A stretch of DNA of 64,000 nt from Escherichia coli (GTDB lineage: Bacteria; Pseudomonadota; Gammaproteobacteria; Enterobacterales; Enterobacteriaceae), in NCBI RefSeq assembly GCF_001677475.2, contig NZ_CP015229.1. The stretch is one strand, 5' to 3'. Below, one piece after another: positions 6,001 through 9,000 of this stretch; the first letter of the stretch is position 1; each line of letters begins with the position of its first letter. Position numbers: made by a program.

Positions 6001-9000
6001 ATCTGTTGCCGGATAATCGACGGAAGATGCGTTCTTTTTGTGATTTGGCGTAATGATGATCCCACTCACATTCAAGGTAGTTTAATTCTTCGTTTAACCA
6101 GTCATTTATATTGTCTTTCAGACGTAGAAGCATGGCTGGTGTTAATATTCTGGACATAATGTCGAGAGTTGGTGGTGTGAGGTGTCCATACGGTTCAGCC
6201 TGAATGGATTTTACTGCTTCGTGGTTTTGCTGAATGAGTTTAAGGAATGCTGATTTAAATTGTTCATTCATGGCCTGCATGCAGGCGGTATATTTATGTT
6301 CATCGTTATACATTGCTAAATCCTCGACGGGAATTGTCAGATATATTTCAGCCATCAGGTAAAACACCAGTGCCCACCACTGGCGGGCTGAAGACTTAAC
6401 ATATCCAGGGATTCGGAACCGATAAATCCTGATAAATATCCATGAACACCAAAATCAAATACGGTCTGTCGGCTGCCGTTCTGGCGCTGATTGCCGCAGG
6501 TGCGCCTGCGCCTGAAATCCTCGACCAGTTTCTGGATGAAAAGGAAGGTAACCACACCACGGCATACCGTGATGGTGCGGGGATCTGGACCATCTGCCGT
6601 GGAGCCACCCGGGTGGATGGTAAGCCTGTTATTCCTGGCATGAAGCTGTCAAAGGAAAAATGCGACCGGGTTAACGCCATCGAACGTGATAAGGCGCTGG
6701 CATGGGTGGAGAAAAACATCAAAGTGCCGCTGACCGAACCCCAGAAAGCGGGGATCGCGTCATTCTGTCCGTATAACATTGGCCCCGGTAAGTGTTTCCC
6801 GTCGACGTTTTATAAACGAATTAATGCAGGTGATCGAAAAGGTGCCTGCGAAGCGATTCGCTGGTGGATTAAGGACGGTGGCAGAGACTGCCGTATCCGC
6901 TCAAATAATTGCTACGGTCAGGTATCCCGGCGAGATCAGGAAAGTGCGCTGGCGTGCTGGGGAATTGACAGATAAGCAGAATATTTTTGCTGAAAAATGA
7001 CGTTGGCCAACGTGGGCGGATAACGCGAAATCCTGCGAACTGGCGAAATGTAAGTGAGTAAAGTCAAAACTGTTGTTTCACGCTGAGGCACCGCAATGGT
7101 GCCTTTGTCATTTTCTGCGCATCTCACGCGCATATCACAACACAGAACCTTTCAGGATGACCCTTGAGGATACCGGTTTGGCTATCGGTGCTTTTCTGTG
7201 GGCCGGATTCCTGTGAGACAAGGTTCATCACTAAAAGGAAATAACCGATGAATATGATGACCGTGCCGTTTCACGGCAACTCTCTTTATGTGGTTAACCA
7301 TAATGGCGAGCCATACGTTCCCATGAAGCCTGTTGTTGCGGGGATGGGGCTAGCCTGGCAATCACAGTTGGCTAAGTTAAGCAGCGTTTTGCGTCAACTA
7401 TAACGGAAATCGTTATGGTTGCTGAGGATGGGAAACGACGCAATATGGTATCCCTGCCACTTCGAAAACTTGCGGGCTGGTTACAAACCATCAATCCCAA
7501 CAAAGTTAAACCTTAAATCCGCGACAGGGTCATTCAGTATCAGGAAGAGTGCGACGATGTTCTCTATGAATACTGGACGAAGGGTTTTGTCGTTAATCCC
7601 CGTCGAATGAGCGTGATGGAAGAACTCAATCAGGTATGCGCTGACATGAAATGGGATAAAAACATCGCCAGTTTGTTTGGTACCGGGCTGAGTGAGTGGA
7701 AGTCGGTTAAAGCTGCACATGTATCAAAAATTCGCACGTTGATAAACGAAGCGAATCTGCTGATTGATTTTGTCCTGGCTGATACAGGCAAAGGAAAAAT
7801 CACAAAGACGGATTGATGGAGTGGTGACCAATGATATCAGACAAACTCATAACGCTGGCGAAGATCCTCTGTGTAATTGTCGGCATTTCATTTTCACTAA
7901 TGCTGGTTGCTCTTTTTCTTTCCCTGGGCTGGATGATGTTGTCTTCGTCGGGGATGCTGGGGTGAGCATAAACCGAATGCTTTCCGCGTTTACCGTTATT
8001 CTGCTGGTGGTCTGTGGTGCGCTGTGTCTGGCAACAAACCATTACCGCGATAACGCCATCACTTACAAAGCGCAGCGCGATAAAAAAGTCAGTGAGCTGA
8101 AGCTGGCGAACGCCACCATTACTGATATGCAGCAGCGCCAGCACGATGTTGCTGCGCTCGATGCAAAATACTCGAGGGAATTAGCCGATGCGAGAGCTGA
8201 AAATGAAACTCTGCGTGCTGATGTTACCGCTGGTCGTAAGCGCCTGCGGATCAACGCCACCTGTCCAGGCTCCGTGCGTGAAGCCACCGCCACCGCCCGC
8301 GTGGGCAATGATGCCAGCGTCGAACTCTCTCCAGTTGCTGGACGAAACGTTCTCGGTATCAGAGACGGAATCATCAGCGACCAGGCAGCATTGAGAACGC
8401 TTCAGGAATATATCCGTACTCAGTGCCTGAAATAGTTTTTTCAATGCGTTGTATCGTCGCCGTATTTCCGCATTAACAGAGACCGCAGCCCTACGGGGAG
8501 ACTCCTCTGCGCGAGTGTGCGGGGATAATCAAAAACGATACACACCGGGGTTTACTGCGTTAACGGAGCGCGGCGTTGTCCCCTCATAGTCGCCTGGCCG
8601 GTGCGATGGTGGAAGAAACCGGAACACATTACAAAATGATAACAATTATCATTTTTCGGGTCCTCCTGGCGGGGTGGGCCTGTACACGGGGCGGGTCGGC
8701 GCGGAAAAAAGCGCATTTTTGTGATTTTATCGTCATCATCATCATGTATGTAAACTGTTGTTTTTAATGTAATTGATGCAAAAAAGATGATGGTTGTGGC
8801 CAATTTTTGTTCGACATCTTTGTGTGGCGGCATTTCTTTACAAAAAAACAGAATCACTTCTGTTCAGAGGGGTATGTGGAGGAGGCGTAGATGGACGGCG
8901 AGCTGAAAAATATGAAGTTAAATATTAATCAACTGGCAGCCCTTTCAGGCCTGCACCGGCAGACCGTTACCGCAAGAATGGCGGATGTTCCTCTTGCTCC

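Follow-up and report, generated by a model that had tools for sequence, protein, structure and literature searches.

In Gifsy-1 of Salmonella, the IsrK-orf45-anrP system places a phage leader RNA in front of an antirepressor-like gene in the Q/late region (PMC4825925). We found a comparable arrangement in a stretch of 64,000 nucleotides (nt) of the Escherichia coli contig NZ_CP015229.1 (assembly GCF_001677475.2; hereafter the window), in which a 135-nt leader precedes the remains of an ant-like gene between the endolysin gene (R) and the Rz spanin gene of a lambdoid prophage. The reading that we consider probable is that this locus holds an accessory gene, dispensable and now dead, together with a leader that belongs to a conserved family of folded RNAs, and for this leader we propose a switch between two alternative folds.

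IsrK has alternative silent and active structures, as does the window leader, although in the latter they are predicted only computationally. It is the closest functional analogue of the window leader and not a homologue: no Rfam match (E ≤ 10, isrK RF01394 included) was obtained in region 6900-8000, and our covariance model of the leader family (R1) gave no match in the isrK-anrP region of Gifsy-1. A promoter of its own, an upstream open reading frame (ORF) of 45 codons and a trans-acting short isoform characterise IsrK, whereas neither a promoter nor a conserved upstream ORF was seen at the window leader. With regard to the short isoform, one hairpin of the window leader (P3, in the helix numbering P1 to P6 used throughout) and the U tract that follows it are terminator-like only in the class of leaders that we call class I, and the ends of the P22 small RNA P22F are unexplained. 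Furthermore, IsrK is a single locus, whereas the window motif is a portable family with many cargos, as we call the genes located behind the leader.

P22F is an 89-nt RNA that was detected in P22-infected cells and listed without known function, structure, family or link to other cargos (PMC13397905, 2026). When matched by eye to the P22 locus (L141), it covers P4-P5 and the Shine-Dalgarno sequence (SD) of the P22 copy of the leader and ends 6 nt before the ATG of rha, and it is the only published trace of the leader element that we found in the literature searched. The P22 leader in front of rha (ORF201) is located at L141:507-645 and keeps P1, P2, P4 and P5 through compensatory changes. The ORF11CD3 C-terminal domain of P22 Rha is common to the Ant-like protein of the window, and the window gene also resembles the Rha group in being preceded by the structured leader and in lying in or after the lysis cassette. 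Rha is reported to depend on IHF. The differences are that the N-terminal domain of the P22 cargo is Phage_pRha and not P22_AR_N, and that the P22 gene follows Rz instead of lying between R and Rz. The RefSeq start of P22 rha (L141:576-1181; NC_002371 39575-40180) is a GTG inside the P3/P5 region of the leader; a conserved ATG that lies 69 nt further on, at L141:645, and is preceded by an SD is the more likely start.

The Ant protein of the P22 immI region carries an N-terminal P22_AR_N domain, as does the window protein, and its synthesis is likewise controlled by an RNA (sar) at the level of translation. However, the two proteins have different C-terminal domains, the P22 gene is in immI and not in a lysis cassette, and there is no Mnt/Arc/sar system at the window locus. 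The RNA of P22 is antisense, whereas a cis-acting leader is proposed for the window, and repressor binding by the window protein is putative. The genes annotated as ant between R and Rz of Shiga toxin (Stx) phages and O157 prophages (VT1-Sakai, BP-4795, P13374 and PA2) are orthologues of the window gene, with 81-95% protein identity (tblastn), the same position and the same leader, although these copies are intact and that of the window is broken. Neither a functional characterisation of the Stx/O157 copies nor experimental work on the endolysin-Rz ant orthologue group as a whole was found in the literature searched. The experimentally studied Ant of Phi24B, which enhances induction, is a different gene that is located upstream of the qut site and outside the lysis cassette (PMC3064807). 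Lastly, the window unit resembles the morons of lambdoid phages in being a dispensable accessory gene among essential late genes that is flanked by a terminator. Classical morons come with a promoter of their own and a terminator on the 3′ side, and the prophage expresses them, whereas in the window cassette the terminator is 5′, no promoter is seen, and the constant part is a shared structured leader.

The leader family and the evidence for its fold

Comparative analysis gives good support for the leader as a widespread structured RNA element that precedes interchangeable cargo genes in temperate phages of Enterobacteriaceae and has neither an Rfam family nor a description in the literature searched. 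The family was collected by two anchored pattern scans of IMG/VR and with the covariance model, which together yielded 76 distinct full-length copies; class III, the P22 copy and the copy in locus L251 were found independently by the covariance model. There are at least three classes, namely class I (the window leader introduced above, hereafter copy 2, and its relatives), class II (P22-like) and class III (which includes a second leader in the window, copy 1), and the carriers are phage records of Escherichia, Salmonella, Klebsiella and Shigella. At the Rfam gathering threshold the whole window gave only two tRNAs and STnc100, and at E ≤ 10 there was no credible match for the leader in region 6900-8000 or in representatives of the three classes.

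Alignment of the family revealed a conserved block of about 135 nt that begins just after the upstream terminator and ends at the ATG, whatever the downstream protein. At 86-92% identity, the leader is found before a Rha gene located after Rz (ES4), before genes of Salmonella P22-like phages and before a tail-region gene of a Klebsiella phage, and the Pfam domains of the cargos comprise KilA-N, Phage_pRha, P22_AR_N, Bro-N, ANT/KilAC, P63C, ORF11CD3, HNH_3/AP2 and TerB. Of 74 distinct contexts, 56 had a GC-rich hairpin with a T-run within about 25 nt of the leader on its upstream side, compared to 14 of 400 random sites, and these 56 contexts contained 55 different hairpin sequences. The units may also be repeated: on the minus strand of L119 (2847-5450) three leader-cargo units, each with its own leader copy, follow the lysis genes in tandem and encode KilA-N+P63C (251 amino acids, aa), KilA-N+ORF11CD3 (165 aa) and KilA-N (176 aa) proteins, in the layout of a cassette array.

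It was also observed that the Stx2a phage of the O104:H4 outbreak, P13374, contains two units (L014:1646-3160). The first is ant between R and Rz, with a class I variant 2 leader at L014:1509-1648, and the second is a Rha-like gene after Rz with a leader at L014:2873-3009.

In the window, copy 2 occupies 7113-7247 on the plus strand and matches the covariance model at 7115-7250 with 163.8 bits, the second best of 88 matches; the leader is intact, and its conservation, which had been claimed from the window alone in an earlier sequence-only reading of this DNA, was confirmed. Directly upstream, a terminator scan identified a plus-strand hairpin resembling an intrinsic terminator, with a T-rich tail (7085-7115, the hairpin being 7085-7105; GAGGCACC-GCAAT-GGTGCCTT). 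The helices of copy 2 are P1 (7117-7120/7128-7131), P2 (7141-7147/7194-7200), P3 (7172-7175/7186-7189), P4 (7156-7166/7219-7229), P5 (7168-7169 and 7173-7176/7203-7206 and 7210-7211) and P6, which pairs an anti-SD with the SD (7148-7152/7234-7238). The 272-nt R-ant intergenic region is composite: its first part (6976-7070) travels with the 3′ flank of the endolysin gene and is present in many prophages that lack ant, and its second part (about 7112-7247) travels with ant. Copy 2 differs from the leader of the ETEC1738 prophage at a single position, 7134, which lies in a variable linker and leaves the paired regions untouched. Because 0.7 changes are expected in 135 nt at the rate of the gene, this one change provides no evidence of selective retention.

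Copy 1 (3117-3251, plus strand) is divergent, belongs to class III and was matched by the covariance model with 56.2 bits (E = 1e-10). Its helices include P1 (GCGCC/GGCGC), P2 (3145-3152/3193-3200) and P4 (3161-3168/3222-3229), with the SD at 3233-3238. Copy 1 sits after a tRNA and a plus-strand terminator hairpin (3089-3112; GGCTCGC-TTTT-GCGGGCC plus T6), which was read from the sequence and identified in the analysis of upstream terminators (L006:403-537 context), and directly before a 141-aa TerB-like ORF (3249-3674; Pfam TerB). Therefore, the motif is tied neither to Rha/Ant-type cargo nor to the lysis cassette.

The fold itself was evaluated by covariation. RNAalifold gave, for class I, a long imperfect hairpin at whose base CCUUU (7148-7152) pairs with the AAAGG SD (7234-7238). 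The arms of P4 change together between groups, from GAUGAcCCUUG/CAAGGuUCAUC in class I to CCCUG/CAGGG in variant 2, CCUUUG/CAAAGG in class II and GGGUGAGC/GCUCACCC in class III, and when the classes were compared by eye P5 had matching insertions or deletions (indels) on both arms and the 5′ hairpin P1 was also found to covary. P2, which crosses the long hairpin, occurs in seven fully complementary versions (CACA/UGUG, CACC/GGUG, CGUC/GACG, CUCA/UGAG, CAAA/UUUG, CAUC/GAUG and AACC/GGUU), and when its arms were shuffled among haplotypes the observed complementarity was reached in 0 of 10,000 permutations. In a structure-blind MAFFT alignment of 43 sequences that were pairwise no more than 95% identical, the covariation score was 0.260, as opposed to 0.134 ± 0.006 for shuffled alignments (reached in 0 of 500) and at most 0.104 when the partners were slid; compensatory changes were found in 5 of 7 pairs of P2, 5 of 10 of P4, 2 of 4 of apical P5 and 3 of 4 of P1. 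The model-fitted alignment, which leans towards the structure, had double changes in 24 of 27 pairs, with 96.3% of cells paired. The presence of G-U pairs is consistent with an RNA transcribed from the strand of the cargo gene.

Three other interpretations of parts of the leader were considered and rejected. A K-turn in the P4/P5 internal loop was discarded by eye, because it would need a register at odds with the covarying P4 pairs and because class III does not conserve the loop. A coding leader peptide is contradicted by the 1-2 nt indels between classes and by substitutions that keep pairing and not frame, and P3 is not a conserved attenuator-terminator, as the U tract is missing in class II.

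P2 and the long hairpin are mutually exclusive as simple nested helices, and both sets of pairs covary. The minimum-energy fold predicted for copy 2 is the SD-covering hairpin (-40.1 kcal/mol), with a probability of 0.20 that the SD is unpaired; enforcing P2 gave -37.0 kcal/mol, a cost of 3 kcal/mol, and raised the predicted accessibility of the SD to 0.42. For the nascent RNA up to 7202, the predicted fold is P1+P2+P3. In the switch that we propose, the upstream terminator would cause the leader and cargo to be transcribed mainly by antiterminated late RNA polymerase. In the off state the long imperfect hairpin (P6+P4+P5) would pair CCUUU with the AAAGG SD and so hold translation off, and in the on state the 7-nt upstream segment of P2 would pair with the loop of the hairpin, either as an early competing fold or as a pseudoknot that draws the anti-SD away from the SD. 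In the kinetic or ligand-controlled variant of this mechanism an early P2 fold (on) would give way to the hairpin (off). In the pseudoknot variant P2+P4+P5 would coexist, with CCUUUCAG as a stretched linker and the SD freed, an arrangement that rough geometry indicates is sterically possible. In the window the switch would be intact but would control a gene that is unable to make its protein. Autoregulation by the cargo protein is argued against by the diversity of the cargos, which include nucleases.

The ant-like pseudogene and the surrounding prophage

The gene behind copy 2 was compared with intact 570-nt alleles from O157 AR-0428 (L002:2847-3416), ETEC1738 (L003:3137-3706) and SMN013SH2 (L005:2275-2844). 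Translation of region 7236-7830 in three frames and alignment with these alleles showed a single 189-codon gene with three changes, located at 7248-7816 on the plus strand and encoding an Ant-like protein of the DNA-binding type (P22_AR_N + ORF11CD3), which confirms the proposal that one gene of about 189 codons between the endolysin gene and Rz had been split into three frame segments. The alignment, which had been suggested as the way to place the lesions exactly, put the frameshift expected near 7375-7385 at the loss of one A between 7381 and 7382 (context AAGTTAAG[A]CAGCG). The in-frame TAA was also real, but its position had been given as 7512-7514; it is two bases further to the right, at 7514-7516, and results from G7514T (GAA to TAA). 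The third change, C7652T, is an Arg-to-Trp missense change that had escaped the sequence-only reading. Over 570 nt the window gene is 99% identical to the ETEC1738 allele and 91% identical to the O157 allele, and the closest intact allele is that of porcine enterotoxigenic and Stx-producing E. coli strains (ETEC/STEC), in which it lies behind another endolysin (M15 peptidase). The unit is carried by about 680 E. coli genomes. As a side observation, the ETEC1738 prophage with this closest intact ant carries genes for an ADP-ribosyltransferase and the B subunit of a subtilase-type AB5 toxin just upstream of the lysis genes (L003:612-1830).

An exact search with 66-mers spanning the lesions found neither of them in 5,426 complete RefSeq E. 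coli genomes, and all three changes were identical in four other GenBank assemblies (L007, L008, L012 and L013) that were found through the exact endolysin protein; GCA_036679865.1 and GCA_047262055.1 are among the assemblies with these lesions. Since the same changes recur in these assemblies, the lesions are inherited and are not sequencing errors. In a sister haplotype (GB089, L006 and L009-L011), ant is broken independently by one more A in the A-run near 7653-7657; in RefSeq, the orthologue of GB089 is recorded as a pseudogene with a frameshift.

In the intact allele, Pfam identified P22_AR_N (PF10547, E = 9e-45) at the N terminus and ORF11CD3 (PF10549, E = 5e-7) at the C terminus, and the Ant-like protein was assigned to PHROG 524 (anti-repressor Ant). 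The same Pfam search matched neither an Ant C-terminal domain (P22_AR_C or ANT/KilAC), ORF11CD3 being the only C-terminal match, nor an N-terminal Phage_pRha or KilA-N domain, the N terminus being P22_AR_N; a sequence search of the PDB with the protein gave no related solved structure. ORF11CD3 is also present in the ES4 Rha protein, P22-type Rha and KilA-N cargos. What the window protein shares with P22 Ant is the N-terminal domain, whereas the C terminus is that of P22 Rha-type proteins, so that antirepressor-like, as the gene had been described, is a label that annotation transfer has attached to it on the strength of a single domain.

The right arm of the lambdoid prophage makes up the first half of the window and begins with genes for RusA and for the Q antiterminator (Q gene at 836-1531), followed by two tRNA genes at 2822-2894 and 2999-3072. 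An Rfam match to the small RNA STnc100 (3877-4052, 93.7 bits) was noted about 2.3 kb downstream of Q, with an AraC-like gene, the two tRNAs and the TerB cassette in between. The endolysin gene (6442-6975, plus strand; Pfam Phage_lysozyme, E = 6e-25) is intact, encodes 177 aa and is preceded by a holin gene; the identical protein is present in at least 23 public contigs. Between the holin and endolysin genes, an extra G at 5645 in a G-run splits a 213-aa hypothetical gene (5347-5989) into two frames, whereas the closest relatives (L007 and L008) carry it unbroken; as the extra G is in a homopolymer, both a genuine frameshift and a sequencing error are possible. Downstream of the pseudogene there is an intact and conserved 44-aa hydrophobic ORF (7831-7965, plus strand; PHROG 4906, E = 4e-23), which is WP_000622439.1 in GB089 and ETEC1738. 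Wherever ant lies between R and Rz this ORF goes with it, and its product may be a membrane protein that assists lysis. The ORF is followed by an intact Rz spanin gene (7977-8435, plus strand; tblastn), the orthologues of which bear the annotation lysis protein, with an embedded Rz1 (about 8188-8394). Next come the terminase, portal, protease-capsid and tail genes, up to about 33.5 kb, and then host genes (potA-pepT-roxA-phoQ and others). The DNA resembles that of E. coli: the best chromosomal match to the window among RefSeq complete genomes was 98.4% identical, and none was identical.

The tail tape-measure gene (18507-22955, plus strand; TMP_2 and partial Tape_meas_lam_C in Pfam) ends early, at 20615, where it is interrupted by a plus-strand element of the insertion sequence family IS21, with an istA-like gene at 20704-22203 and istB at 22200-22955 (IstB_IS21, E = 9e-62; Mu-transpos_C_2). 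Because this element cuts the tape-measure gene, the prophage is defective and unable to make tails or infectious particles.

Loss of the gene and role of the leader

Most probably ant was lost because selection on it was relaxed in a decaying prophage, as is favoured by the IS21-family insertion in the tape-measure gene, the split 213-aa gene and the location of the ant cassette behind a terminator downstream of Q, although neutrality is itself inferred. The deletion of 1 nt and the nonsense change, followed or accompanied by the missense change, inactivated the gene in a common ancestor of the window lineage and at least four other sequenced strains. That the gene is instead intact in the living strain, and was broken by sequencing or assembly error, might be suggested by the absence of both lesions from the 5,426 complete genomes and by the commonness of single-base indels as errors; however, the deletion lies outside any homopolymer, the deletion, nonsense and missense changes all recur in the four independent assemblies, and gene callers gave the same fragments of 51 and 66 aa on these, so that we regard such an artefact as close to refuted. 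A weightier rival is adaptive loss, in which the Ant-like protein would inactivate phage repressors and its loss would be selected for lowering spontaneous or cross-induction in the lysogen, in line with the sequence-only suggestion that the decay reflects selection against prophage induction. Among IMG/VR loci collected by leader sequence alone, which are not phylogenetically independent, cargo of the ant type was truncated in 7 of 21 cases and cargo of every other type taken together in 4 of 191 (Fisher p = 9e-6), and the truncation points differed (66, 86, 120, 146, 149 and 157 aa, to which the window lineage adds one at 51 aa), whereas of the flanking genes in the same loci R was disrupted twice and Rz never. 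This excess is suggestive of dispensability or counter-selection. Adaptive loss would also fit the two independent inactivations in sister haplotypes with an identical endolysin, and the fact that all three changes of the window lineage within the gene are disruptive or non-synonymous, with none synonymous. Nevertheless, the antirepressor activity is putative, as the N-terminal domain is the only one common to P22 Ant, and the comparison of cargos is confounded by host and prophage type, because the carriers of ant cargo are lambdoid prophages of E. coli, which are often defective, and those of the other cargos are mostly P22-like prophages of Salmonella and Klebsiella. Because the cassette is in the late region, behind an intrinsic terminator downstream of Q, normal expression of ant would be expected only after induction of the prophage and would not be its cause, and the lack of tails weakens any selection acting through the prophage's own induction. 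We therefore consider adaptive loss unlikely, and the suggestion of selection against induction to be weakly supported.

Comparative evidence supports well the view that the leader functions as an RNA. That it was instead kept as a DNA recombination linker, a mosaic boundary for cargo swaps, or simply by recent common descent, would account for its location at module boundaries in every context, for the very high identity within a class, and for the homology between the window and ETEC1738, which starts exactly at 7112, after different upstream terminators, and continues through the leader. However, although the three or four classes have only about 60-78% identity to one another, four helices have been maintained in them by compensatory double changes, the indels in P5 are paired, and P4 is wholly re-written in class III. 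A pure linker would not keep complementarity, although the two roles are compatible, and we find a linker without RNA function improbable, more so than adaptive loss of the gene. The leader might also have as its main product a trans-acting small RNA (sRNA) like IsrK, directed at other copies or at host mRNAs, in which case an orphan leader would keep its function after the death of its gene. The precedent is IsrK, the leader of an antirepressor-like gene that acts both in cis and in trans (PMC4825925), and such a product would agree with the origin of P22F in the homologous P22 leader (PMC13397905), with the terminator-like score of P3 and its U-rich tract in the window (7171-7190), and with the potential for interaction between the two copies in the window, or the up to three copies in other phages. 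On the other hand, a scan of 6 kb for sigma-70 promoters yielded a single weak site, on the minus strand, where shuffled sequences gave more, and none in or before the leader, and the alignment shows no conservation between the terminator and P1; for the same two reasons we no longer regard the cassette as a classical moron transcribed from its own promoter. In addition, class II lacks the U tract after P3, P22F may be a stable decay intermediate of the hairpin, and the window leader diverged too recently for selective retention to show. We rate a trans-acting main product as about as unlikely as adaptive loss.

Several observations weigh against our preferred reading of a dead accessory gene behind a switch-like leader. 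The switch mechanism comes from comparative sequence analysis and thermodynamic prediction, and single-sequence folding of the leader was no better than that of shuffled sequences (z = -1.15 and -0.93), so the earlier description of the leader as structured is borne out strongly by covariation and not by folding of single sequences. P6 is mostly invariant in class I and covaries little (it is paired in 68% of cells of the structure-blind alignment), and in class II, which is P22-like, the SD is just outside the helix and not within it. Moreover, several blocks of the leader are invariant by construction, as most of the sequences came from the two anchored DNA patterns. With respect to the gene, three substitutions are too few to tell neutral decay from selected loss, and neutral decay alone does not predict an excess of truncations in ant-type cargo, unless E. 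coli prophages decay faster.

A more far-reaching interpretation, which we put forward tentatively and hold to be considerably less probable than the reading of a dead gene with a conserved leader, is that the leader represents a new class of phage riboregulator, a pseudoknotted switch that senses a late-phase cue, combined with a socket for genes, selection in polylysogens and titration by orphan leaders. If this were true, the cue might for example be a protein of the phage or host, or else the kinetics of Q-modified transcription, and the terminator-leader-cargo socket would accept interchangeable genes for DNA-binding proteins or nucleases, singly or in tandem, in temperate phages of Enterobacteriaceae. 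The frequent independent loss of Ant cargo in E. coli would then be due to selection in polylysogens against cross-induction of neighbouring prophages, and orphaned leaders, as in the window, could still titrate a shared factor.

The pseudogene is in itself of little weight, as accessory genes of defective prophages decay constantly. The leader, in contrast, is a common regulatory handle for poorly understood phage genes (Rha, KilA-N, Bro-N, Ant-like and HNH), to which annotation pipelines give the labels antirepressor or transcriptional regulator without evidence, and it makes the control of these genes directly testable by compensatory mutations. It accounts for an unexplained small RNA of P22, indicates an annotation error in that the start of P22 ORF201 is placed inside the leader, and suggests that cassettes are exchanged behind a shared RNA switch. 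In Stx phages the same leader-ant unit is located in the lysis cassette beside the toxin genes, where the timing of translation bears on induction and toxin release.

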